A stretch of 34,879 bases of DNA from a bacterium (GCA_043809745.1 JBDROU010000016.1:1-34879); one strand, 5' to 3'. Counted from the first letter of the stretch, positions 3,596 through 34,879 are shown. Translations and numbers: made by a program. Notes: generated from the letters alone by a model not told the origin.

Positions 3596-4298
3596 CGTCT
3601 CCGGATTTCTTTTTCAGGTACTCTGCATAATCAAAGTCATTTTGACTGTCTATATCTACCGACCTTTCGGGAGGCATTATATATGCAAATGTTTTATTAC
3701 CAAAGAAACTTTTATGTTTTCTTAAATAACCGCCATACGCAATATATATTGCTCCGTTGACCCTATAGAACCGCGGGAGTCCTTGCCTATACTCACTTAT
3801 TTTATTCAGCTTTAGAAAGCCTTTCATGCGCTTATCAGAATCTATCCTATTTGACAAATAAGGATGATGTTCCGCAGCGCAAACGGAAACAACAGATTCT
3901 GCCTTCTTGCTTATAAATAATTTGAGCGCAGAATCAATATCTTCTGCTGTCCTTAAAGGCGAGGTAGGCTGGAGGAGCAATATGACATCATATTTACTGC
4001 CTCTGGTTTTCAACCAATTTTCCGCATGCAAAATAACATCTATCATCGGCGATTGATCTCTGGCAAGATATTTCGGCCTCTTAAATGGGACCTCGGCTCC
4101 AGCTTTTCTTGCTTCAAAGGCTGTTTTTTCATCATCTGTACTCACAATAAGACTGTCTATATATTTACTTTTTTTGGCTTCGCTTATAGTCCAGTTTATT
4201 AACGGTTTGCCTAAAAAAAATTTTATGTTTTTTTTTGCTACTCCCTTTGATCCGCCTCTGGCTGGTATTATACAGATTACTGATTTATTTTTTATCAT
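3585..4298 (-). CDS. legF: acylneuraminate cytidylyltransferase family (CMP-nonulosonic acid synthetase; CMP-legionaminic acid synthetase candidate)
   Basis: 237 aa. The N-terminal IIPARGGSKGVAKKN motif is diagnostic of the NeuA/CMP-Kdo-like cytidylyltransferase fold. The stop lies 3 nt from the start of the NeuC-like gene. Confidence 0.85.
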   Translation of the reverse strand: MIKNKSVICIIPARGGSKGVAKKNIKFFLGKPLINWTISEAKKSKYIDSLIVSTDDEKTAFEARKAGAEVPFKRPKYLARDQSPMIDVILHAENWLKTRGSKYDVILLLQPTSPLRTAEDIDSALKLFISKKAESVVSVCAAEHHPYLSNRIDSDKRMKGFLKLNKISEYRQGLPRFYRVNGAIYIAYGGYLRKHKSFFGNKTFAYIMPPERSVDIDSQNDFDYAEYLKKKSGDDAK

Positions 4299-4301
4299 TT
4301 T

Positions 4302-5504
4302 TCAGTTATCCCCGGACAGCCGCTCAATTTCAGAATCCGGCTTTAGATCATAAAATACTTTTTTTGTGTCTTTAATTTTGCCTACATATTTTTTAAGTAT
4401 TTTGTAAATTTTTCCGGCCGCGTTACCGTCACCATATATATTCTGCACTCTGCCGCACCTAATCTTAAATTCTCTGCTTAATGCTTTTTTTACAGCCAGT
4501 TTAATTGTTTTGTTTGAAGGCTCGCAATCAATTATGCTTTCTGCCCGGATTCTGCCTTTCTGCCTGTCACCTATATTAACGGTAGGCACGCCAAATGTCG
4601 GGACTTCAATGATGCCGCTTGATGAATTGCCTATTACAGCATCCACATACTTAACGGTTGAAAGATAATTCAGCTGGCCTAATGATGTAAAAGCTTTAGC
4701 TTTATAGGAATATTTCTTAACATAATTATCTATAAGCTTTAAGATTATCCTTCCAAAAGTGTCAGCATTGGGTTTAGTAAAAATTATTTTAAGGTTTTTG
4801 AAACTGCTCAATACTTTTAACAGTTCTGTAAACTGTTTTTCCGAAGTATTGTCCTCTAATGTAACCGGATGGAAAGTAACTAATACCGTATTTTTCCCAA
4901 ACTTGAAGTCTAAAACCCTTTCTAAAGCTGATTTAGTAAGCAGTTTCATCTTTTTTATATTATCTATACCCAGCGCACCGACGTTAAATACCCTATTAGG
5001 AAACTCGCCAAGCTGTATCACCCTTTTCCTGTATAATTCAGTGGATACAAAATGCAGCTGGCTCATCTTGGTGACTGAGTGCCTTATGGCATCATCAAAC
5101 GCTCCCTCAGTCACCTCCCCGCCGTGTATATGCGCAATTGGTATCCTGGCAATAAAAGCGGCAAAAGCCGATGCAAGTGTCTCGAATCTGTCACCCAACA
5201 GTATAAGAAAATCCGGTTTCAGCCTTTCAAAGGCTTCTCCGAAACCGGCCATCCCCAATCCTGTGGATTTCGCGATACTTACTTCGGTATCGCTTGAAAG
5301 CAGCATCTCTACTTTTTCATCTATCTTGAAGCCGTCTTCCTCAATCTGCTCAAATGTAAGCCCGAACTCCGGGGATAGATGCATGCCTGCGGCAACAATC
5401 TGCAGCAAAAACTCATTTTTTGATTTTATCTTTTTTAATAAAGGGAATAATATACCATAATCGGCTCTAGTTCCGGAAACAACCGCTATCTTTCTTTGTT
5501 TCAT
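4302..5504 (-). CDS. legG: UDP/GDP-N-acetylglucosamine-type 2-epimerase (hydrolysing), NeuC/LegG family
   Basis: 400 aa. The N-terminal KIAVVSGTRADYG and HIHGGE motifs mark non-retaining, hydrolysing 2-epimerases of the NeuC family. The gene sits between a NeuB-like synthase and the CMP-transferase. Confidence 0.85.
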   Translation of the reverse strand: MKQRKIAVVSGTRADYGILFPLLKKIKSKNEFLLQIVAAGMHLSPEFGLTFEQIEEDGFKIDEKVEMLLSSDTEVSIAKSTGLGMAGFGEAFERLKPDFLILLGDRFETLASAFAAFIARIPIAHIHGGEVTEGAFDDAIRHSVTKMSQLHFVSTELYRKRVIQLGEFPNRVFNVGALGIDNIKKMKLLTKSALERVLDFKFGKNTVLVTFHPVTLEDNTSEKQFTELLKVLSSFKNLKIIFTKPNADTFGRIILKLIDNYVKKYSYKAKAFTSLGQLNYLSTVKYVDAVIGNSSSGIIEVPTFGVPTVNIGDRQKGRIRAESIIDCEPSNKTIKLAVKKALSREFKIRCGRVQNIYGDGNAAGKIYKILKKYVGKIKDTKKVFYDLKPDSEIERLSGDN

Positions 5505-10406: not shown

Positions 10407-11930
10407 TTAATAGCTGTTCCAGTGCCCCTTGCCTACGCCGCAAATCTTAAATCCATTTTTTTTCAGAAGCCTGGCTTTATAATCATCTATTACGTTGCCG
10501 CAATCAACAACCAAACCCTTTGGTTTTAGCAGACTTTTATAATAGTTTACGCTCAGTCTGCTATATTCTAAATGATTCGCAGTTAATATAACAGCATCAA
10601 CTTTGTTTTTAGCAAGTAATCTTAAATCATTCAAGACCGGCAATTTCAACTCAGGCCAATAACTTACAATTGGATCATGAAGTAGCACAATCCCGCCATT
10701 TTTCACGCATATTTTGTAGAATAACTCACTCGGCGAAAATCTTGTATCGGCAACATCTTTTAAATAGGACACCCCCATAAGGAGAATTTTCCTGCCTTTC
10801 AATTTGCCTAAATTATTTTTCAACAACTTGAACGAATGAAACGGCATCTTATCATTAATATTAATTGCTCCGACCGACATCCCTAAATGTTTGCCTTTAT
10901 GAAAAATCTTTCGCGCTGCCCAATCTGCTATTAATGAATCTTTTGTAAGGCAATAACCTCCAACACCAAAACCGGGCAGCATTATATTGTTGTGAGTGGA
11001 GCGTTTTTTTATTCCTTCAATTACCTCGAATAAATTAACACCCGCAAGTTCAGCAAATTCCGTCCACTCTTGTATAAATGCTATATTTAATGCCCTGTAC
11101 GAATTCTCAAGCACCTTGCCCATTTCTGACGCGGTTATGTTGCCAAGCTCGGTAAGCGGGTAATCTTTCGTATTAATTATAGAACTAAAGAATTCCTTTG
11201 CCTCTTTCTTGGACGCATCATTAATACCTGAATAAACCCTGTAATATGAAACGATACTCTTCAGGTAGTTTTTCCCGGGCATGACCCTCTCGTAGGAATA
11301 AACCAGTTTAGGGATTTTAGTTTTAAATCCTCTCTTCTTAAATACTGCCTTAAACAAAGGCGCGATCATATACTCGCATATACCGGGAGGCATCGTAGTC
11401 TCTATAATAACCAGACAGGAGGTTTTTATCCTCATCGCAATCTGGTGCATAGAAGTTAGAAGAGGCCTCAAGTTAATACTGCTGTCCTCTACAAAACCCA
11501 ATTTTCCTTTTCTGACATCCAGATTAATATCAACAATAATGATATCCGCGGCAGAATAACCGTATTTATCCGCTGTCGCCATAATATTACCTGACGAGAA
11601 GCTTTTCTTAAATGTATTTGTTAAATCTATATCATTGCTTTTTATAGGAAGTTTGCCGTCATTGATCATACCAACCCTCCAGTATGCATCAATTTTCGGG
11701 AGGTCCATTCCTATCACAGCAAACTTATGCTTATTATTCTTATTCCTGGCAGAAGCCACCGCCGTAAGCATCGCGGATCCGACAAAACCCAATCCCTGAA
11801 CAACCACCAGCTTCTTGCCTTTATTCTTTGAGATAAATTCAGTTATGCCTTCCTTGTCATTAGGATTTTTCGAAAAGTGATATGATTCACCAAAAGGCGA
11901 CGCAGAAACTAACATTTTTTTGTGTTTCAT
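10407..11930 (-). CDS. nucleotide-sugar dehydrogenase (UDP-glucose/GDP-mannose dehydrogenase family; UDP-HexNAc 6-dehydrogenase candidate)
   Basis: 507 aa. It has the Rossmann motif GLGFVGSAML, the central ERVMPGKN, and the catalytic-Cys motif GGYCLTKD, shared with Ugd/WbpA/WecC-type dehydrogenases. An N-terminal extension of about 35 aa is present. Confidence 0.8.
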   Translation of the reverse strand: MKHKKMLVSASPFGESYHFSKNPNDKEGITEFISKNKGKKLVVVQGLGFVGSAMLTAVASARNKNNKHKFAVIGMDLPKIDAYWRVGMINDGKLPIKSNDIDLTNTFKKSFSSGNIMATADKYGYSAADIIIVDINLDVRKGKLGFVEDSSINLRPLLTSMHQIAMRIKTSCLVIIETTMPPGICEYMIAPLFKAVFKKRGFKTKIPKLVYSYERVMPGKNYLKSIVSYYRVYSGINDASKKEAKEFFSSIINTKDYPLTELGNITASEMGKVLENSYRALNIAFIQEWTEFAELAGVNLFEVIEGIKKRSTHNNIMLPGFGVGGYCLTKDSLIADWAARKIFHKGKHLGMSVGAININDKMPFHSFKLLKNNLGKLKGRKILLMGVSYLKDVADTRFSPSELFYKICVKNGGIVLLHDPIVSYWPELKLPVLNDLRLLAKNKVDAVILTANHLEYSRLSVNYYKSLLKPKGLVVDCGNVIDDYKARLLKKNGFKICGVGKGHWNSY

Positions 11931-11988
11931 ACTCTAAAAGTATAATAAATAAATTCAACGTAGTACATACTGAGATCGCTCACACTTG

Positions 11989-13164
11989 CTAAATACGTGT
12001 TACATTCTCATAAAGATCCTCTAATTTACTTATCATAAGTTGCACAGAAAATCTCATTAAACCGTTTTCCTTGCTTGTTACGTAACTTAAAGCTTCTTTC
12101 CCGAATCTTTCCCTTTTATCTTTATCATTCGCCAAACTTAAAACGGCTTCTCCTAAAGCCCTATAATCACCTGAAGAAACCAAAACTCCTGTCTTCCCGT
12201 CTAAAACTACATCCTCCACACCGCCAACCCTTGTCCCCACAATAGGTTTACCCAAAGCAGAAGCCTGAACATAGACTTTGCCCATACCTTCATTCAGCGA
12301 TGCCATCGCGAATACATCAAATATACTCATAATCTCCGGAGCATCTTTCCTTAAGCCCAGAAATTTCACGCTATACTCAATACCGAAATGCTTAACTAAT
12401 TTTTCAAGCATATCCCGTTCACTCCCATCGCCAACAATTAGCAAAACAGCATTTTTATTTACTTTCAATACCTCATTAAAAGCTTTTATAAGTGTTTTAT
12501 TGTCTTTTACCTTTTCTAATCTGGTAACGGTACCTACAACAAAATCATTCTCGGATATGCCTATCGAACTCTTTACTTTTACCGCATCAGTATTCATTGA
12601 AATATAATAATCAATATCAACCCCGGAATGGATTGAGATGAATTTTTCTTCTTTAGCTACACCGAATGAAACATGTTCATCTATACCTTTCGGGGTAAGA
12701 GTAATTATTTTTTTAGTGATCAAAGCTGTTATCTTTTCTAATAGTACAAACAACGCGCTTTTCAATCTACCGTAATAACCGTAAAAAACATGCCCGTGCG
12801 GAGTATGAATAATGGCCTTGGTCCCCGCAAAGAAAGCCGCCCATCTGCCAATTATACCTGCTTTTGATGCATGTGTATGGACAATATCAAATTTATGCCT
12901 CCTAATAAAAAATAATAACCAGAAAAATGCCAAGATATCTTTAATAGGATTTATCTGTCTTACCAGATAAGAAAGATAATGCACATCAACTTCTTGTTTT
13001 TTTATAAATTCCGATATGCTTCCATCGGGATCATTAGTTGGACCGGAAATTAATAGATTATCAAACTTATCATTTCTAATATGCGAAACTGTAAGTATAG
13101 TGTTTTCCGCCGATCCTCCTCTATCAAGACGGGTTATAATATTAAGAATTTTTATTTTTTTCAT
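11989..13164 (-). CDS. GT4-family (GT-B, retaining) glycosyltransferase
   Basis: 391 aa. The C-terminal domain shows the EX7E-like region NEGMGKVYVQASALGKPIVGTRVGG. The 4-nt overlap with the acetyltransferase gene upstream suggests coupling. Confidence 0.8.
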   Translation of the reverse strand: MKKIKILNIITRLDRGGSAENTILTVSHIRNDKFDNLLISGPTNDPDGSISEFIKKQEVDVHYLSYLVRQINPIKDILAFFWLLFFIRRHKFDIVHTHASKAGIIGRWAAFFAGTKAIIHTPHGHVFYGYYGRLKSALFVLLEKITALITKKIITLTPKGIDEHVSFGVAKEEKFISIHSGVDIDYYISMNTDAVKVKSSIGISENDFVVGTVTRLEKVKDNKTLIKAFNEVLKVNKNAVLLIVGDGSERDMLEKLVKHFGIEYSVKFLGLRKDAPEIMSIFDVFAMASLNEGMGKVYVQASALGKPIVGTRVGGVEDVVLDGKTGVLVSSGDYRALGEAVLSLANDKDKRERFGKEALSYVTSKENGLMRFSVQLMISKLEDLYENVTRI

Positions 13165-26645: not shown

Positions 26646-27818
26646 CTAATTAGAGGCAACAATAATTAATAATATAAAATTAACGAACGTAAGCCAGGGT
26701 ACAAGCTGCTGCATAAACCACGTTGACTTAGCAAAACCCTTTTTTGGCACATAAACTGTGTCACCCGGTTCAAGTTCAATATCAAGATCAAATTGATTCT
26801 TGTCTAAAACTTTGTTCATATTTACTTCATAAACCTCCATATTGGGAGCTTTTCCTCTGTATACCTTGACCCTTTGTGTTACAGCTTCATCGGTGAATCC
26901 GCTTGCCAAGGTAATTACTTCCAATATCTTTAATCCCTTCTTATGCTTATATGAACCGGGATTTTCAACCTCCCCTATAACATATACATCTTTTTCAATT
27001 TTACCGACCTCTACCACGTCACCGGGAAAAAGTGTAAAATCTTTTGTAAAATCTCCGCTCTTAAATACATCTTCAAGATTTAACTCGAATACCTTCCTGT
27101 CTTGGCCCTCTCCCCTATATACCCTTATATCTCTAAGGTTAGCTTTATCTGTAAACCCTCCTGCTTGAGATATCGATTCAAGCAATCGAATCTCATCTTT
27201 ATAATCGTGGTCGCCCGGCCTTGTTACTTCACCGGTTAAAAATACTTTCTTTTTGCTGTACCTTTTTACAGCTATGGATACCTCCGGCTTAGAGACATAA
27301 ATTTTAAGTTTGTTCACAAGTTCTTTTCCCAATTTCTCTTTAGTTTCCCCGCTTGCTAAAACCTCGCCGATCATTGGCATTGTAATTCTGCCGTCCGGCT
27401 GAACTATTACCTCCCGGCTCAATTCCTCTGCGGGATATACTATAATACTCAACAAATCTCCCACTTCTATCTTATAATCCTTTAGATCAGTTAACTTCAC
27501 AAACTCAACTTTCGGCTTTGCCTCCGGTTTTTCAACCTTAACTGCTGGGGATTTTAATGGTTTTTGTCTAAGAGCTTGTAATTTATTATACTCTTTCTCT
27601 ACTATTGACAGATCCACACCGTATGGATCGTATTTAGATTTAATTCTATCAAGAATAACCATAAGATCGTTTGGTTCTGCGCCCTTCGCCTTTGCCTTTT
27701 CATAATACTTCATTGAGTTCTCAAACTGCTCGTAAATATCGGTCTGCGCTAAACCATTACAGGATATTCCCGTAATAAAGCTAAAAATTAAAAAACTGAA
27801 TAATAATATTTTTTTCAT
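26646..27818 (-). CDS. wza: outer-membrane polysaccharide export protein (Wza-like; Poly_export + SLBB domains)
   Basis: The most likely start is ATG 27818 (MKKILLFSFLIFSFITGISC signal peptide). The track's longer form begins at TTG 27839. A Poly_export-like motif IEVGDLLSIIVYP is followed by repeated SLBB-like units and a C-terminal amphipathic/hydrophobic helix. The ATGA overlap with the upstream gene gives start 27818 against stop 27815. Confidence 0.8.
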   Translation of the reverse strand: MKKILLFSFLIFSFITGISCNGLAQTDIYEQFENSMKYYEKAKAKGAEPNDLMVILDRIKSKYDPYGVDLSIVEKEYNKLQALRQKPLKSPAVKVEKPEAKPKVEFVKLTDLKDYKIEVGDLLSIIVYPAEELSREVIVQPDGRITMPMIGEVLASGETKEKLGKELVNKLKIYVSKPEVSIAVKRYSKKKVFLTGEVTRPGDHDYKDEIRLLESISQAGGFTDKANLRDIRVYRGEGQDRKVFELNLEDVFKSGDFTKDFTLFPGDVVEVGKIEKDVYVIGEVENPGSYKHKKGLKILEVITLASGFTDEAVTQRVKVYRGKAPNMEVYEVNMNKVLDKNQFDLDIELEPGDTVYVPKKGFAKSTWFMQQLVPWLTFVNFILLIIVASN

Positions 27819-28222
27819 TTTACATGTATAACCGAACAAACCTTACCATCAGGATTTGTCCCTTTCTGTAAATTTGTTGGATCTAAAATCTCCATATCAT
27901 CAACTATAAAATTGTACCCGAAGCTCTCCATAGGAAGTTCTTGTATTATATACCAATTATTCGCGTTTTGCTTCTTCATGGGCTTTTTGTACCACTGCGT
28001 GAAATCACCAATTATTTCAACCTTGTTTGCGGGTGCTTCATATCGAAATATTATTTTTTTCTTCTGCATTTCTTGATTTACTGCTTCTTCCACTCCTTCC
28101 GTTTTTACAGTTTTACTAAGAAAAACTTGACCAGCATTAAACTTAACTAATAACGCCCCGACCGTAGCAACCATCATTATTAACAATACAATTACCAAGA
28201 TTGAGAAAAAAAAGTTCTTCAT
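27815..28222 (-). CDS. small membrane-anchored protein with CBM48 / AMPK-beta glycogen-binding-like domain
   Basis: 135 aa. An N-in TM helix (FFFSILVIVLLIMMVATVGALLV) is followed by IIFRYEAPANKVEIIGDFTQW...WYIIQELPMESFGYNFIVDDMEILDPTN...SVIHVK. This matches the AMPK1_CBM/CBM48 pattern (FRW..GG.EV.L.GSFN.W....L......F.....LP.G.H.YKF.VDG.W..DP). The gene is ATGA-coupled to wza. Confidence 0.65.
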   Translation of the reverse strand: MKNFFFSILVIVLLIMMVATVGALLVKFNAGQVFLSKTVKTEGVEEAVNQEMQKKKIIFRYEAPANKVEIIGDFTQWYKKPMKKQNANNWYIIQELPMESFGYNFIVDDMEILDPTNLQKGTNPDGKVCSVIHVK

Positions 28223-28630
28223 TTATTGATACTCTTTTATTTTCTCTACTACTGAATACACCAACTTCTGCAGCTCATTAACTTTGTTTTCAAGTAAAAC
28301 AGGTGTTGCCGTACCCTTTGTGCAAACCATTGACTCTAACTGCAAAAGCTTTTTTTCATGCATATCGCACCTTGACGCAAGGTCATTAAGCCTGTTTTCT
28401 ACAATCTTAAAAAGCGTATTAAATTCTTCATTGGCCATTCTTTTCATATTCCCTCCGGGTTTAACTGCTTTTTTAGATGGTTTATCTTCTATTATGAATT
28501 GTATAAATAGAAATGCTAAACCAAGTTCCATCAACAGTAAGATCAGTAAAATAAATATCGGGAATTGGCTTAGGAAAAGTATCAGTTCTTTCATAAATTC
28601 TTCAATACGTAATTTAATACTATACTGCAC
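28223..28630 (-). CDS. hypothetical small membrane protein (one TM helix + C-terminal coiled coil)
   Basis: 135 aa. It has a hydrophobic segment (ILFLSQFPIFILLILLLMELGLAFLFIQFII) and a heptad-like C-terminus. Its stop abuts the start of the CBM48 gene with no gap. No family was recognised. Confidence 0.45.
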   Translation of the reverse strand: MQYSIKLRIEEFMKELILFLSQFPIFILLILLLMELGLAFLFIQFIIEDKPSKKAVKPGGNMKRMANEEFNTLFKIVENRLNDLASRCDMHEKKLLQLESMVCTKGTATPVLLENKVNELQKLVYSVVEKIKEYQ

Positions 28631-28655: not shown

Positions 28656-28680
28656 TTCCGTATTATGTCAATTTACGGAA
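28656..28680. other. 7-bp inverted repeat (TTCCGTA-n11-TACGGAA) spanning the stop codon of the HD-GYP gene
   Basis: The repeat was read directly from the sequence. It lies in the 42-bp gap between the HD-GYP gene and the small membrane-protein gene. No U-tract follows on the minus strand, so it is not a canonical intrinsic terminator. Confidence 0.25.
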
Positions 28681-29968
28681 TGACTACCCAGTTATGCGAC
28701 AGTAAATATAAGGCAAAGTTTTTATCTTTTACACGAATCTTAGTCTCATCAACAGGCCCAATAATCTGAAGCACAGGATTATGAATTAAATTAACCCTCT
28801 TTTTTGGCTTAAGGCGGTCATAATCTAGGGTAATAATTATATCTATCTGCGGCCTTAGAGGATATTGCGGATTTACAGCAACGACCTCAGCTATCTCACC
28901 TGAACTCAAACGCACATAGCTGCCTATAGGGTAGAGACCTATTATCTCAATAAATTTTTTTGTTAATTGAATATTAAAATCATTGCCTATCTCCCTTCCC
29001 TCTACCAGCCATCTGCAGACATCATGCGGGAGGAATCTGCCTCTGTAAGCTCTGTGATGGCTTAAGGCCTCATAAGTATCAAGCAACCCTATAATCTGCG
29101 CATAATTATGAATCTGTTCGCCTTTTATACCAGTTGGATATCCCGCTCCAGTCTGGCGTTCATGGCATTGATATACAACTTCTGCAATCAGCCTTTTCAA
29201 TTCTTCGGAAATAAAACTCAAGCCATAAATAATTTTTCTGCCTTCTTCTGAATGCTTTTTAATTTCTTCATATTCACTTTCGCTTAAACGCTCTATCTTG
29301 CTGATCAGTGCTGTTTTTCTAACTAAACCAAGATCGTGCAGTAATGCCGCTAACCCAAGATCAACGCATTCTTCTTTATTGTACCCTACAGCTAACCCTA
29401 AGCGGATAGATAATATACATACATTCACAACATGGCTGTACAAGTATTCAGGCGTTGTTATCCTGTTGGTAAACCGTAAAATAAAGTTATCATTGTCCGC
29501 AAACTTGTTTACAATATTTTTAATAAGCTCGAACAATTTTGAATCAAAATATTTATGATCAACATTTACAGTGCGGTAAAACTCTCTCACGCTTTTTAGC
29601 AGCCCAAAATACAACTCATTGGCCTCTTTATCCAACCTCGGATCTTCCGATTTTTCTTCCTGCCTAATCTCTTTGAGTTCACTAATGCCTATATCAACCG
29701 GAGGCATGGATACTTTCTTAGCGAAATGCAGTCCTTCTGAAGGTTCTTTTTGCATTCCTTTTCCTAAATCATAAGTTTGTGAATAAAATTTTGCCGGTGC
29801 TGGCGGGATAGACACAGGAGTGGCGGACTGCGGCGGCTGGGCGGGTGGTGCTGATGATTGTTGTTGTATTACTGGACCCTCAGGTTGAGGAAACGAAGTT
29901 GGTGAGCGTTCCTTCTCAAGCTGCTCAATCACCTTTTTCTTTTTTAATATATCAGAAATTCTTACCAT
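28673..29968 (-). CDS. HD-GYP domain c-di-GMP phosphodiesterase with Pro/Gln-rich N-terminal region
   Basis: 431 aa. The HD motif is LAALLHDLGL and the GYP motif is HERQTGAGYPTG. The N-terminal region of about 60 aa is low-complexity (PTSFPQPEGPVIQQQSSAPPAQPPQSATPVSIPPAPA). No REC domain is present. The gene overlaps the histidine kinase gene by 17 nt. Confidence 0.8.
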   Translation of the reverse strand: MVRISDILKKKKVIEQLEKERSPTSFPQPEGPVIQQQSSAPPAQPPQSATPVSIPPAPAKFYSQTYDLGKGMQKEPSEGLHFAKKVSMPPVDIGISELKEIRQEEKSEDPRLDKEANELYFGLLKSVREFYRTVNVDHKYFDSKLFELIKNIVNKFADNDNFILRFTNRITTPEYLYSHVVNVCILSIRLGLAVGYNKEECVDLGLAALLHDLGLVRKTALISKIERLSESEYEEIKKHSEEGRKIIYGLSFISEELKRLIAEVVYQCHERQTGAGYPTGIKGEQIHNYAQIIGLLDTYEALSHHRAYRGRFLPHDVCRWLVEGREIGNDFNIQLTKKFIEIIGLYPIGSYVRLSSGEIAEVVAVNPQYPLRPQIDIIITLDYDRLKPKKRVNLIHNPVLQIIGPVDETKIRVKDKNFALYLLSHNWVVIP

Positions 29969-31334
29969 GCTGGTTTATGTTGAAGTATAGTTTTACTACA
30001 GTCCCTTCATCACTTTCCACAGTAACTGCTCCATTGTGTATCTTCATAGTCCTTAAAACATTATATAGACCCAATCCCTGATGATGCGATTTCGTTGTAT
30101 AATATGGTTTAAATACAGAGTCTAACTGCTCTTTAGCTATACCCACTCCGGTATCGGTGACTGCAACACATACATTATTTATTTTCTCGTGAAATGAAAT
30201 CTCCACTGAAATCTTACCATCTTTTATTACTGCTTCCACTGCATTATTGAGTATATCTTTTACAGCTCTAACAATTGAGCTTTTATCTAAGATAACTTTC
30301 GGGATATTACTCTTATATTTTTTCTCAATACTAATAGATCTCTCGCGAAAAATAGGTTTAAGCTCTATTATAATGCTTTCTATCATATGCTCAATATTTT
30401 CTTCCTTAAAAGTAAGAGGTTTTCTGGTAGATACATCAAGGAAGTACAAAAGCATGCTCGACACCCTCTTTAATTCCGTTAATATCTGTACCAGTTCATC
30501 CAACAATGATTTATTTATTTTTCTACTTCCAAGCAGATTATTATAATAAATGATAATTTCAGTAATTATATCATGTAATTTAAGCGAAAAAGCGGTAGAT
30601 AAACCCTCTTGTTCCTGAAATTCTATCTCAAATCTAGTTTTTAACAATGCAAGCTCTGCTCCAGATTCATCGATTTTTTTCTCGAGCTCCTGCTTCGTCT
30701 TCTCTTTTTCCGCCAACAGTTTCTGCTCTTTCCCATTAATAATTTCTTCTAATCTATGCCTTTCTTCTCTTGCTTCTTCCAGTTGGGCTTCCAACTGCTT
30801 TTGCTGTTTTTCAAAATCCTCTTTTATGCTGGCAGTTTTTCTTTGAAGAGCTTCCTTCTCCAGCGCCAGATCAAGCATTATCTTCTGGCTTGCAAGGGCT
30901 ATAACAGCAGAAGGAGAGTGCAGCTCTGTCTCCTCGAGAACTTCACCCGGCATCAACCCTTTCCTGAGTATTATATTTCTTTTCTCCAGCTGCTGTATTT
31001 TTCTCTCAAGCCCGGATTGGGTTTGCACATTCTCCACTTCTTGTATTTTTGATTCCAGCTTTTGTTCATAAAGTTGTTTATCTTCGCTATAACGGTTTTC
31101 CAGCTCATGAATTCTAAATGTAAGGTTTCCCAGGGAAGATTTTAGGTTTGTTGATTCGCTTCTTAATGATTCCTTTTCTTGCTCAGCATTCTTAAAACGT
31201 TCATTCCAGAATAATCTCTCGTTTTCATATTTATTCTTCCAGTACTGAGGCGGCAAATCAAAAACCGAATCGGCAGGGCTATCCGTCTTTTGCTGATTAT
31301 AGTCGTCTTTTTTGATATTTTCTTCTTTATCCAT
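29952..31334 (-). CDS. cytoplasmic sensor histidine kinase with long N-terminal coiled coil (no TM, no cognate response regulator nearby)
   Basis: 460 aa. About 250 aa of E/K/Q-rich heptad sequence forms the N-terminal half. A putative H-box is KLHDIITEI. A complete HATPase_c domain follows (N-box ILNNAVEA, G1 DTGVGI, F-box VFKPYYTTK, G2 GLGLYNV). Confidence 0.75.
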   Translation of the reverse strand: MDKEENIKKDDYNQQKTDSPADSVFDLPPQYWKNKYENERLFWNERFKNAEQEKESLRSESTNLKSSLGNLTFRIHELENRYSEDKQLYEQKLESKIQEVENVQTQSGLERKIQQLEKRNIILRKGLMPGEVLEETELHSPSAVIALASQKIMLDLALEKEALQRKTASIKEDFEKQQKQLEAQLEEAREERHRLEEIINGKEQKLLAEKEKTKQELEKKIDESGAELALLKTRFEIEFQEQEGLSTAFSLKLHDIITEIIIYYNNLLGSRKINKSLLDELVQILTELKRVSSMLLYFLDVSTRKPLTFKEENIEHMIESIIIELKPIFRERSISIEKKYKSNIPKVILDKSSIVRAVKDILNNAVEAVIKDGKISVEISFHEKINNVCVAVTDTGVGIAKEQLDSVFKPYYTTKSHHQGLGLYNVLRTMKIHNGAVTVESDEGTVVKLYFNINQHGKNF

Positions 31335-31533: not shown

Positions 31534-32688
31534 CTAAGAAATTTTATCCCCGCAATTTGGACAAAATTTTGAACCTTGAGCGACTTCAACATTACATTTG
31601 CCGCATTTCACAGATTCAATCTTTACTTTATTCCCGCAATTTGAACAAAATTTCGAATTTCCTTCTATTTCGGTATCACAATTAGCGCATTTAATCTTGG
31701 GTTTCTCAACGGTTTTACCGCAATTGGAACAAAACTTTGAGCCTATCGGTACCGCTGTGTTGCAGTGAGGGCATACTATCCCCTGGTTCCCAGCCTGTTG
31801 ATTCTGCTGTTGTGCATTACCCATCATCTGATTTGCCATCTGACCGAAACCCGCCCCCATCCCCATTCCCATCCCCGCACCCATACCAGCACCCATCATA
31901 CCGCCCGCAGCGCCTTCATTTTTAGCCGCTCCTTCCATTGTGTCAAATGTCCTCTTGGTTTTATAAAGTTGATCGCCCATAAGCTTATACTCGGCTTTTT
32001 CGGCGAGCATTTTCTTCAATTTTTTAACGCTTTCATCTTCCTCAGGAACGTTAATTGAGCTTAAATAAAAGTTTACAATTTCAATTCCAAAATTAGCGAA
32101 TTCTCCGCTAACGCTTTCCTTTAAGGCTTTGGAAATTTCGTTGAGTTCAGTGCTGATTGTTAATATTGATATTTTATCATTTATTATTTTTTCTGATATA
32201 TAATCTTTTATTTTGGACATTAGTACGCCGCGAAAATAATCGAGTATGTTTTGCGCGGTAAATTCCGTCATAGTTCCAACCATACCGACAACAAGTTTTT
32301 GTGAATCATTCACCTTCATCCCGAATTGGCCGAATGCCCTGACCGGCACAAAAATTTGATATGCCGGTTCCAGAATAGGTATCGGCTCCCGCGTCCCCCA
32401 TTTTAGATCCATGTTTACTGCTTTATTGATATAATAGATCTCTGCTGCAAACGGTGTTTCATTCCCGAAAGGAATATTCACCAAGTTTCTTAACAATGGG
32501 ATATTGGCAGTTTTCAGCGTATGCGTACCGGGACCGAGCGTATCCAATATCTTTCCACCCTTAAAGAAAAGGACCTCCTGAGCCTGATTCACAATTACCT
32601 GTGTCCCCCATGATAACTGATCACTGGCCCACCTCCATACAAATACATCACCGGGTCCGTCATACTTAACGCGATCGATTAATGCCAT
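31534..32688 (-). CDS. SPFH/Band-7 family protein (YdjI-like, Band_7_1-type) with Gly/Met-rich linker and three C-terminal zinc ribbons
   Basis: 384 aa. The N-terminus MALIDRVKYDGPGDVFVWRWASDQLSWGTQVIVNQAQEVLFFKGGKILDTLGPGTHTLKTANIPLL matches the YdjI-like SPFH family. A low-complexity stretch GAAGGMMGAGMGAGMGMGMGAGFGQMANQMM follows. The C-terminus has three tandem CxxC-x11-CxxCG units. Confidence 0.75.
   Translation of the reverse strand: MALIDRVKYDGPGDVFVWRWASDQLSWGTQVIVNQAQEVLFFKGGKILDTLGPGTHTLKTANIPLLRNLVNIPFGNETPFAAEIYYINKAVNMDLKWGTREPIPILEPAYQIFVPVRAFGQFGMKVNDSQKLVVGMVGTMTEFTAQNILDYFRGVLMSKIKDYISEKIINDKISILTISTELNEISKALKESVSGEFANFGIEIVNFYLSSINVPEEDESVKKLKKMLAEKAEYKLMGDQLYKTKRTFDTMEGAAKNEGAAGGMMGAGMGAGMGMGMGAGFGQMANQMMGNAQQQNQQAGNQGIVCPHCNTAVPIGSKFCSNCGKTVEKPKIKCANCDTEIEGNSKFCSNCGNKVKIESVKCGKCNVEVAQGSKFCPNCGDKIS
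31537..31779 (-). repeat. three tandem ~84-bp coding repeats (zinc-ribbon modules)
   Basis: The DNA repeats ccgcaatttggacaaaattttgaacc / ccgcaatttgaacaaaatttcgaattt / ccgcaattggaacaaaactttgagcc at about 31550, 31635 and 31718. They encode C-x2-C-x11-C-x2-C-G units separated by KIK/KIE linkers. Confidence 0.7.
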
Positions 32689-32718
32689 AAAAACCTCCGT
32701 TAATTAAAATTTTATACT

Positions 32719-34641
32719 CTATCCTGCTCTGTATTTCGCTAACTCCTTCATTCTACAATATATTTCAGTACGTTTTCTATTTATTTGTAAGTTTACATCT
32801 GTTTTTGAAAGGCTGATACTCTTGCCAAAAGATTCCAGGAAATGACGCTCATCTTTTGAAATATCACCTTCAGCAAAGCTCATCTCAATCATCTCATCCA
32901 GCCAAACCCTGCCCTCTTTAAAACTTGAAGGATTTGGCATATCAATAGTACCGGCTTTATATGAAGCTGTAATTTCATCCAAATTTTGTTTAGGTAGTTT
33001 TCTCTTTGCCATATAAGATCTAATATATTTCATCTCTTTATCATCGATTTTGCCGTCTGCCATCATAACTGAATATATCCCATAAAGAAGGGCAACCGGA
33101 TCAACAACTTCAGGCAGTTTTATCTCTTCACATCTGGATTTAGCTTTCTCCTTCAACCTCATATCATTCCATTCTGTCCTGGTTATAATTGAAGAAAGCA
33201 TCCATTCTTTATTTTGATTTGCGACTTCCAGGCCGCAGTATTCGCATACAGATTGCATATTCGATGTAACCGGAGCCCCGCAACCCGGGCAGTGCGATGA
33301 TTGCAACCCCGATTCTGCATTTGTTTTTGCATTGCGCTTGCGTGAAAGCGTAAAAACATGGGAATAGAAATTTTTACTTGTATTTTTTTGCGGTTTGCCG
33401 TCAATATTTACAACCTTATACCCGCTCCAATTTATCAGGACATCTACCGTATCTAATAAATCTCCCTGGCAGACACGGCTTACTTCGGATACTCCGATGG
33501 CTATCTCATCATAATAATAATTCTCTTTCTTTATAAATGAATCAACCGAATCACAAAAATCTGCTACGGCCACCTTTTTCAAGAAATCCGTTTTCCCAGC
33601 AATTAATGCTTTATGATAACGCCAGAATATCACTGATGTCCGGTCTTCTACGAATTGTATGTTAAAAGCAGGATCCAGCTGTTGAAACTCCCATACACCG
33701 GGTATTTCTGAGATGCCTTCGCGTACGCGCCATTGTGACTCCTGCGTAATTTTTGAAAGAATCCAATCATATTCCCCGGAAGAGATGAGCGAGTTGCAGG
33801 AATCACATTTCACTGTATCGCTCATCTTCAGATAAGCTCCGCAATTCGGGCATGACCCTTCTATTAACCCGGGTTTTTCAGATGTTTTTGCTCCAGGCCT
33901 TCTTAAAAAAGTCCAATATTCCACAAAAGTTACGTTAGAAATATTGCTTCCGCGCACAATTCTTTTTGTCTCTGTAGAAATCCAGTAATCAACGGCTGAG
34001 GCATAAATCTTAATATTTATCGTTTCAAAATATGAATCAGATTGAACCGACACAATTTCACATTTATTAACCGCCATATTCTTCATTATATTAGCAATCT
34101 TCCATTTGTTCTGAATTTCGAATTGTATATTATATCGTTCTACAACACCATCTGAAACAAATGCCTGCACATTTTCCATATTTTTTTGTATCCAGGCTTC
34201 CTGAATCTTAAAGAAAGCGATGCGCACCCGTTTCAAAAACTTATCAGGATCAAATGACGGATCATGATTTTTTATTTTTTTATAAGATAAATTTATCATT
34301 GTTTCCGTTTGCCGCTGCCTGCCCCTTTTTATGGTATTTGAAACATGTACATCTTTTACTTTAGAACCGCCTTTCCATGAAAAAATCACAAACATAACCA
34401 GCAGCGGAACACCAATCACCGGATTTCTGAAAGCCAGATATATTAAAAGGCCCAATATATCGCCGCCACCGCTTCCGCCTCCACTGCCGTAATTACCGCC
34501 TCCACCGCCAAAAGAATCGCCGCCTCCGGCGCGCGCCCATACATATTCACTAATAAATACCAAAATCTCCGCTGTAATAAGAATAAAAATAAAGTTATAT
34601 TTTTTTATTAAATGTTTAATTCTATTTATAAAAACACCCAT
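32719..34641 (-). CDS. membrane protein: TM - Gly-rich segment - TM, then 2 x (Tim44-like/NTF2-like domain + zinc ribbon), then C-terminal TerB domain
   Basis: 640 aa. Two hydrophobic helices flank GGGDSFGGGGGNYGSGGGSGGGD. Tim44-like module 1 is RIAFFKIQEAWIQKNMENVQAFVSDGVVERYNIQFE...VTFVEYWTF, followed by CPNCGAYLKMSDTVKCDSC. Module 2 has the analogous region plus CPGCGAPVTSNMQSVCEYCG. The C-terminus has a TerB signature (VALLYGIYSVMMADGKIDDKEMKYIRSYM...EGDISKDERHFLESF). The stop lies 30 nt from the SPFH gene start. Confidence 0.65.
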   Translation of the reverse strand: MGVFINRIKHLIKKYNFIFILITAEILVFISEYVWARAGGGDSFGGGGGNYGSGGGSGGGDILGLLIYLAFRNPVIGVPLLVMFVIFSWKGGSKVKDVHVSNTIKRGRQRQTETMINLSYKKIKNHDPSFDPDKFLKRVRIAFFKIQEAWIQKNMENVQAFVSDGVVERYNIQFEIQNKWKIANIMKNMAVNKCEIVSVQSDSYFETINIKIYASAVDYWISTETKRIVRGSNISNVTFVEYWTFLRRPGAKTSEKPGLIEGSCPNCGAYLKMSDTVKCDSCNSLISSGEYDWILSKITQESQWRVREGISEIPGVWEFQQLDPAFNIQFVEDRTSVIFWRYHKALIAGKTDFLKKVAVADFCDSVDSFIKKENYYYDEIAIGVSEVSRVCQGDLLDTVDVLINWSGYKVVNIDGKPQKNTSKNFYSHVFTLSRKRNAKTNAESGLQSSHCPGCGAPVTSNMQSVCEYCGLEVANQNKEWMLSSIITRTEWNDMRLKEKAKSRCEEIKLPEVVDPVALLYGIYSVMMADGKIDDKEMKYIRSYMAKRKLPKQNLDEITASYKAGTIDMPNPSSFKEGRVWLDEMIEMSFAEGDISKDERHFLESFGKSISLSKTDVNLQINRKRTEIYCRMKELAKYRAG

Positions 34642-34805
34642 TTGTTTTTATACTCCTTTACTTTAATAGTATAAATGAATAGTACTGTTTTTCAAGAATA
34701 AGTATTAGTCCGTGGCAATCCCAGTTTTTTAAGTTAACCTTGACCACGCATTATTCACTTAGTATAATTTTATTGAAAATAGATTTTAGTAAATTTTTTC
34801 AAACA

Positions 34806-34819: not shown

Positions 34820-34879
34820 ATGAAATACTTAATTACAGCCTTGCTTTTCGCAGCTTTATTAAGTTCCAGCGGATGCGTT
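34820..34879 (+). CDS. 5' end of a probable lipoprotein gene (runs off the window)
   Basis: The sequence ATGAAATACTTAATTACAGCCTTGCTTTTCGCAGCTTTATTAAGTTCCAGCGGATGCGTT translates to MKYLITALLFAALLSSSGCV. This is a signal peptide ending in a lipobox-like LSSSGC. It is the only plus-strand coding start in the window. Confidence 0.6.
   Translation, partial: MKYLITALLFAALLSSSGCV

Follow-up and report, generated by a model that had tools for sequence, protein, structure and literature searches.

The question raised by the locus described here is what a membrane-anchored multidomain protein and a soluble SPFH protein, encoded side by side, may do together. The locus lies in a stretch of bacterial DNA of 34,879 nucleotides (nt) (GCA_043809745.1 JBDROU010000016.1:1-34879), which was analysed at its full length and is referred to as the window. 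It comprises two minus-strand open reading frames (ORFs), gene A (32719..34641, 640 amino acids (aa)) and gene B (31534..32688, 384 aa), which are separated by a 30-nt spacer (32689..32718) carrying a GGAGG ribosome-binding site. An earlier interpretation made from the DNA alone, hereafter the sequence-only reading, had described two such genes 30 nt apart, and both ORFs were confirmed at these positions. Protein A is membrane-anchored and exhibits two copies of a Tim44-like domain with a zinc ribbon, followed by a TerB-like domain, and protein B, which is soluble, belongs to the SPFH proteins of the YdjI/SamI type. By analogy with the YdjG, YdjH and YdjI proteins of Bacillus subtilis, renamed SamG, SamH and SamI, we lean towards the view that A serves as the membrane anchor, and perhaps as a regulator, of B on the inner side of the membrane, and that the pair, which has no PspA next to it, is a functional counterpart of SamG(H)/SamI. 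To our knowledge, soluble SPFH proteins of the Band_7_1 type are common in bacteria, yet nearly all experimental work on them concerns B. subtilis. The present locus suggests another candidate membrane partner for these proteins, one that is far more widespread.

The central part of A consists of a duplicated unit. Pfam recognises a Tim44 domain (PF04280) at residues 119-253, above its gathering score (E 1.3e-21), but misses the second Tim44-like domain, with no match between the first and the second ribbon. Alignment with hhalign of the profile of residues 112-302 with that of residues 303-490 gave a probability of 99.9% (E 9.5e-32, 173 columns), which indicates that A holds a tandem duplication of one unit. 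Unit 1 (residues 112-302; 33736..34308, on the minus strand like all features of A and B given below) comprises a Tim44-like domain of the NTF2 fold and a ribbon (C264-C267...C279-C282) located before the last strand. Unit 2 (residues 303-490; 33172..33735) is a divergent copy of unit 1 with its own ribbon (C451-C454...C466-C469). The two ribbons, which are matched weakly by Pfam at residues 263-288 and 446-470, exhibit a CxxC-x11-CxxC spacing, and their eight cysteines are all invariant in an alignment of 78 sequences of the family. The two Tim44-like domains with ribbons that the sequence-only reading had proposed were thus both recovered, the first by Pfam and the second by hhalign.

The AlphaFold model of A, built with 78 homologues (pLDDT 85.7, pTM 0.81), contains two alpha+beta cones, in which helices are followed by a curved sheet, with the Cys4 ribbon inserted before the last strand. 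The order of the secondary-structure elements is identical in units 1 and 2, and both cones adjoin the membrane helix in the model. The best structural matches of A are Tim44 and mL45, which are both membrane-associated proteins, and the cones of A may bind or sense lipids. The C-terminal domain of A (residues 515-640; 32722..33099) is all-helical and is modelled with a pLDDT of about 77-96. Its assignment to TerB, also proposed previously, is marginal in Pfam (PF05099, residues 522-616, 25.4 bits for a cut-off of 24.4), and precomputed matches to PF05099 and/or DUF533 recur in most A homologues. No sequence match to this domain was found among solved structures, and TerB was also absent from the top fold matches.

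The N-terminal part of A exhibits two hydrophobic segments on either side of a glycine-rich stretch. Segment 1 (residues 11-36; 34534..34611), detected by hydropathy, could act as a signal peptide or make up the first arm of a transmembrane hairpin, and segment 2 (residues 62-93; 34363..34458), the predicted membrane anchor, runs into a long basic helix that extends to residue 126. The low-complexity stretch between them (residues 39-60; 34462..34527) is Gly-rich family-wide, shows pLDDT values below 50 at residues 38-58, is predicted to be disordered and probably lies on the outer side of the membrane. Segment 1 ends in an AxA motif (A36-R37-A38; 34531..34536) directly ahead of the glycine run. 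The motif is near-invariant in the 78 homologues: R37 and G39 show no variation, A36 and A38 are conserved to at least 90%, and G40 and G41 are nearly invariant. It resembles a site for signal peptidase; if A were cut there, its new N-terminus would be Gly-rich and would lie outside the membrane. Of the transmembrane hairpin with a Gly-rich insert that had been described earlier, the two hydrophobic segments around the Gly-rich stretch stand, and a cleaved signal peptide is the alternative to a hairpin. Either way, the bulk of A would be cytoplasmic, which agrees with the basic residues past segment 2 and with the four-cysteine ribbons.

Protein B was predicted to be a Band_7_1 SPFH protein of the YdjI type, and this is well borne out. 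Its SPFH domain (residues 18-220; 32029..32637) matches PF13421 with 155.2 bits for a cut-off of 24 (E 2.3e-45), and BLASTP aligns B with B. subtilis YdjI at 23% identity over 346 residues (E 4e-24). The SPFH domain is followed by the unusual Gly/Met-rich linker already noted from the sequence (residues 246-303; 31780..31953), a low-complexity region of Gly, Met, Ala and Gln with 16 Gly, 10 Met, 10 Ala and 8 Gln among its 58 residues. The C-terminal part (residues 304-384; 31537..31779) comprises three ribbons, each matched by Zn_Ribbon_1. Their number is as had been described; their spacing is CxxC-x10-CxxCG, the x11 spacing belonging to A. Ribbons 2 and 3 form an 84-nt tandem repeat at the DNA level (31543-31608 versus 31627-31692, 73% identical), which suggests a recent duplication, and the number of ribbons in B homologues ranges from 0 to 3. 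No hydrophobic segment was found in B in hydropathy windows.

The pairing of A with a Band_7_1 gene was surveyed in 81 A-centred loci from a scan of species-representative genomes, in which Band_7_1 genes were sought by tblastn and phmmer in flanks of 10 kb. Such a gene was found in 19 of the 81 loci, including seven of nine in Elusimicrobiota, four of six in Psychromonas/Colwellia, six of 13 in the PVC group and the single locus of Thermodesulfobacteriota. Two arrangements are observed. In the first one, orthologues of B, with SPFH domains 58-73% identical, lie 12-67 nt downstream of A in six loci of Psychromonas, Colwellia and Elusimicrobiota, and in a looser form within 0.3-4.2 kb of A in five further loci. 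The close A homologue P0004 likewise has B 33 nt downstream. In the second arrangement, found in the PVC group and Thermodesulfobacteriota, A is preceded, at a distance of 54-290 nt and on its own strand, by a gene of another Band_7_1 subfamily. These proteins are canonical Band_7_1 members (260-313 bits to Pfam) that are 27-33% identical to B, and their tails carry a GYF_2 domain or zinc ribbons. The loci with a Band_7_1 gene directly upstream of A are L015, L027, L028, L031, L036, L041, L054 and L070. A GYF_2 domain also replaces the ribbons in the B orthologue of L091. The SPFH domain is the constant partner of A, and the tail and the gene order vary.

The linkage was also observed from the side of B: in five of six look-ups centred on B homologues (47-80% identical), an A homologue was immediately upstream. 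The genes flanking the pair differ in every locus examined, which indicates that the pair moves as a unit and is unconnected to the polysaccharide locus of the window. The view that the two genes form an independent unit, put forward in the sequence-only reading, is supported by these look-ups and by the recurrence of the pair in Elusimicrobiota and Gammaproteobacteria with varied flanks. At the locus of the closest A homologue (L004), an ORF of 178 aa (4094..4630) is inserted between A and B and exhibits a sub-threshold match to Phage_CP76, the phage regulatory protein CII (24.5 bits for a cut-off of 26).

For comparison with the experimentally studied case, the B. subtilis pspA-ydjGHI locus (L084) was retrieved from a metagenome with a published ydjG primer sequence (PMC8581546). 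In B. subtilis, YdjI is soluble and gathers in membrane foci only with the help of the membrane proteins YdjG and YdjH, and it recruits PspA (PMC8581546). A 2026 preprint renames the genes samGHI and argues that SamI restrains signalling by SamGH (bioRxiv 10.64898/2026.02.06.704340). YdjG has been described as comprising two zinc ribbons, an NTF2-like domain and a transmembrane segment, and YdjH as a TPM-domain protein (Ravi et al., PMC11237479). B and YdjI share the same organisation, with an SPFH domain, a linker of Gly, Met and Gln, and a C-terminal zinc ribbon region, and neither has a transmembrane segment. The linker of YdjI (MANQMM...NQQ) is similar in composition to that of B, whereas YdjI has one ribbon and B has three. 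The SPFH gene is in both cases in an operon with a gene for a membrane-anchored protein combining zinc ribbons and an NTF2 fold, and A exhibits the domain types described for YdjG (zinc ribbons, NTF2 fold, transmembrane segment), the NTF2-like domain of YdjG being taken from PMC11237479. Both proteins also have a short Gly-rich end beyond the transmembrane segment (...MMGGGF in YdjG, GGGDSFGGGGG... in A). However, A is twice the size of YdjG and shows the reverse order, with the transmembrane part first and a ribbon inside each cone; its Tim44-like unit is duplicated and a TerB-like domain is added. The hosts differ as well, being Firmicutes for SamGHI, and Elusimicrobiota, the PVC group and Gammaproteobacteria here. 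As B is homologous to YdjI and A has the domain types described for YdjG, the locus is best regarded not as a new system but as a variation on one already known, in which a scaffold-forming soluble SPFH protein has a membrane partner dedicated to it. The sequence-only reading had taken the pairing to be undescribed. In the literature searched, a Tim44/TerB protein paired with an SPFH protein was indeed not found described, a 2012 survey of Ter systems being a place where the architecture may be mentioned, but YdjI/SamI with YdjG provides a precedent.

If the analogy holds, A and B would be encoded by a two-gene operon and would form, through physical contact, a complex at the cytoplasmic side of the inner membrane. 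A would be held by one or two N-terminal helices, with a short Gly-rich peptide as the only part exposed outside, and its two Tim44-like cones, its two zinc ribbons and its TerB-like domain would sit directly beneath the membrane. B would be expected to form oligomers and to depend on a partner for access to the membrane. A would be this partner, anchoring B and possibly regulating it or being regulated by it. The arrangement would resemble that of SamG/SamH and SamI, in which the SPFH protein, itself soluble, is recruited by membrane proteins and holds back their signalling. The pair would probably serve to monitor or stabilise the cytoplasmic membrane during envelope stress, with no PspA encoded next to it; a role as scaffold or sensor is suggested purely by analogy.

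A broader proposal, which we put forward tentatively, is that the A family is a widespread, as yet unstudied sensor of the inner leaflet of the cytoplasmic membrane that reads the state of the lipids through its duplicated cones and, in several phyla, recruits a soluble Band_7_1 SPFH scaffold. The resulting membrane-maintenance system would be independent of PspA and distinct from SamGHI, and A could be the missing membrane receptor for SPFH proteins of the YdjI type outside Firmicutes. If A recruits B as predicted, this would provide the first function for bacterial duplicated-Tim44-like proteins and for the TerB-like domain outside ter operons. The anchoring of B by A would not be surprising in principle, but as a hypothesis it is specific and concerns a large family that is still uncharacterised. 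As the pair is present in cultured strains of Psychromonas and Colwellia, the prediction that A recruits B can be tested there.

The size of the family is apparent from a profile search of 1.84 billion cluster representatives (clusters at 50% identity), which returned 1804 A-family proteins at E<=1e-30. Among the best 150 of these 1804 matches, nearly all are of similar length and cover most of the profile in one stretch. Full-length homologues of A, with 33-44% identity and about 620-700 aa, are abundant, and at least 562 loci were found in the scan of species-representative genomes. They belong to Elusimicrobiota, Fermentibacteria/Aegiribacteria, Victivallales/Lentisphaerae, Kiritimatiellae, Verrucomicrobiota, Planctomycetota and Thermodesulfobacteriota, and the cultured genera with A include Psychromonas, Colwellia and Haloferula. 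The B family is larger than the A family, with 5831 of 8000 scored candidates at E<=1e-10. Public annotation of the relatives of both proteins consists of generic domain names only, and a protein identical to A, from a bacterial metagenome-assembled genome (MAG), is annotated by NCBI as 'TIM44-like domain-containing protein'.

Several observations weigh against A being the anchor of B. The Band_7_1 gene was found near A in only one of 15 loci of unclassified MAGs and in none of the 30 loci of Fermentibacteria or the five of Planctomycetota. The conservation of the pair as neighbours, expected from the sequence-only reading, is therefore recurrent in some lineages and absent from these last two groups. 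One complete genome (Psychromonas sp. PT13, L037) has A with no SPFH gene within 10 kb, whereas in three further genomes of this genus B follows A by 30-67 nt. Conversely, the B homologue P0210 is preceded by an unrelated protein with several transmembrane segments instead of A. The comparison with YdjG is also limited. As a candidate homologue of A, YdjG was rejected on sequence grounds, since BLASTP and hhalign align the zinc ribbons alone (91-94% probability over 20-24 columns). The model of YdjG, obtained from a shallow alignment of sequences of 66-99% identity, has a pLDDT of 57.8, and its Foldseek matches are meaningless. In addition, the co-occurrence with pspA, which the sequence-only reading had proposed to look for, was not observed at these loci. 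Neither the window nor the A loci gave a match in tblastn searches with PspA and YdjH, and Pfam scans of the neighbouring genes of the window detected no pspA and no TPM-domain gene ydjH. An NfeD gene is likewise absent from the window and from the A loci, except L038. The A/Band_7_1 linkage is real and recurrent, yet limited to some lineages.

The survey leads to the main rival explanation, in which A is self-sufficient, as a lipid-binding or lipid-transfer factor or as a stress sensor acting through its TerB-like domain, and B is a frequent but functionally separate neighbour that is at most co-regulated. Its standing derives from the about three quarters of the species-representative A loci that have no SPFH gene in their 10 kb flanks, which implies that A can work without an adjacent B, and from the full-length architecture of A, which is kept across the 1804 clusters whether B is nearby or not. 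The label 'predicted lipid-binding transport protein (Tim44 family)' given by JGI to relatives of A points in the same direction. We nevertheless consider this explanation rather unlikely, because Band_7_1 genes from two SPFH subfamilies have come to lie, or have stayed, next to A in two different gene orders and in four or more phyla, with short spacers and always on the strand of A, which would be difficult to account for if no functional link existed. Moreover, B itself carries no membrane anchor.

A role as an anti-phage or Ter-type stress/defence module that guards the membrane against infection, which the sequence-only reading had left open as far as phages are concerned, now appears improbable. 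The TerB-like domain of A would fit such a module, as would the phage CII-like regulator ORF of L004 and the HEPN/AbiU2 or BrnT/BrnA genes located a few kb away in two loci. PADLOC, however, gave zero matches for A and only a partial LeoBC match of 21 bits for B (E 3.8e-5), which is limited to the helical and low-complexity part of B, and a role in phage defence found no support there. Genes of the terZABCDE type were not found in Pfam scans of the neighbouring genes of the window or among the called genes of the listed related loci. The usual neighbours are housekeeping genes (tRNA synthetase, SLT/LysM, LexA, SMC, ATP synthase) and not defence islands. In addition, the sequence and the architecture of the A family are broadly conserved over several phyla, whereas defence genes tend to have a patchier distribution.

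It is likewise improbable that the pair serves the genes located downstream in the window, for example as a scaffold for the Wza/Wzc/Wzy machinery of polysaccharide export. The order downstream of B, on the same strand, is a gene for a kinase-like HATPase_c protein, a gene for an HD-GYP-like HD_5 protein and then a Wza/Wzc/Wzy/glycosyltransferase cluster, and SPFH proteins are known to organise polysaccharide synthases, as in the StlP example cited in bioRxiv 10.64898/2026.02.06.704340. Yet B is separated from the kinase-like gene by a gap of 199 nt that holds a promoter-like site, and no polysaccharide or kinase/HD genes were seen beside the pair in any of the roughly 90 related loci inspected. 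Finally, a module that senses or buffers zinc or another metal, which could be imagined from the two invariant Cys4 ribbons of A, the three of B and a TerB-like fold proposed to bind metal, is very unlikely, given that the ribbons vary from 0 to 3 in B homologues and are replaced by GYF_2 in some A-linked ones, so that they do not form a conserved core, and that no metal transporter or regulator is consistently nearby.

The proposed anchoring of B by A can also be set against other known systems. In the SPFH-NfeD (QmcA-YbbJ) and HflK/C-FtsH systems, an SPFH protein is encoded beside a membrane protein that it is thought to organise, and L038, from Elusimicrobiota, even carries, between its A and B homologues, a gene for an NfeD1b-type protein (11707..13149; NfeD1b_N, NfeD_membrane and NfeD). 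In contrast to the SPFH proteins of these systems, B belongs to the Band_7_1 branch and has neither a transmembrane segment nor a long coiled-coil tail, and the window and the other loci have no adjacent NfeD or FtsH gene. With regard to the C-terminal domain of Tim44, mL45 and the alphaproteobacterial TimA, A differs in having two tandem copies, each with an inserted Cys4 ribbon, together with its own transmembrane anchor and a TerB-like tail, and it shows no link to protein import or ribosomes. The two NCBIfam models for TimA and the Tim44-TimA adaptor (NF033778, NF033779) scored far below their cut-offs on A, one with 46.5 for a cut-off of 80 and the other with 28.5 for a cut-off of 200. 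DjlA also exhibits a TerB-like helical domain on the cytoplasmic side of a membrane-anchored protein, and a weak match to DjlA and a match to DUF533 are found in the corresponding region of A. Unlike DjlA, A has no J-domain, and its TerB-like domain is C-terminal and distal to the transmembrane part. The role of the TerB-like domain of DjlA is likewise undefined (PMC11709261).

With regard to the layout of the locus, the gaps around the pair, 199 nt downstream and 180 nt upstream, are wider than any other gap separating the listed window ORFs of 120 aa or more, in agreement with the earlier description of the pair as bracketed by the real intergenic regions of the window. The listed ORFs of this size that are not nested in a longer minus-strand ORF are all on the minus strand. 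A Shine-Dalgarno-like motif precedes both genes (AAGGAG for A, GGAGG for B). A promoter-like site, TTGAAA-16-TATACT (34668..34695, minus strand), is located upstream of A in the 180-nt divergent intergenic region and agrees with 10 of the 12 consensus positions. The number of promoter-like sites in the scanned region is not above the expectation from shuffled sequence, so this site is to be read as a consensus match only. No terminator-like site was found in the 30-nt A-B spacer, and the scan detected no intrinsic terminator 3' of B, where a weak CACAAAG/CTTTGTG stem followed by a T-run is visible by eye. Across the whole window, Rfam gave zero matches to riboswitches or other RNAs at gathering score.

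On the other side of the divergent intergenic region, a plus-strand ORF starts at 34822 with a lipoprotein-type signal peptide (MKYLITALLFAALLSSSGC...) and is cut off by the end of the window; this corresponds to the divergent lipoprotein gene mentioned in the sequence-only reading. A strong promoter-like site, TTGACC-17-TATAAT, lies nearby at 34740..34768 on the plus strand. Downstream of B, the HATPase_c gene (29952..31334, minus strand) encodes a coiled-coil protein in which a HisKA match is absent, and it is overlapped over 17 nt by the gene of the HD_5/HD-GYP-like protein (28673..29968, minus strand). Together, these two genes seem to form a signalling pair of their own in front of the Wza/Wzc/Wzy polysaccharide genes. 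The region from the HD protein to the Wza-like exporter holds two abutting ORFs of 135 aa (27815..28630, minus strand), one without a Pfam match and the other with an AMPK1_CBM glycogen-binding module.

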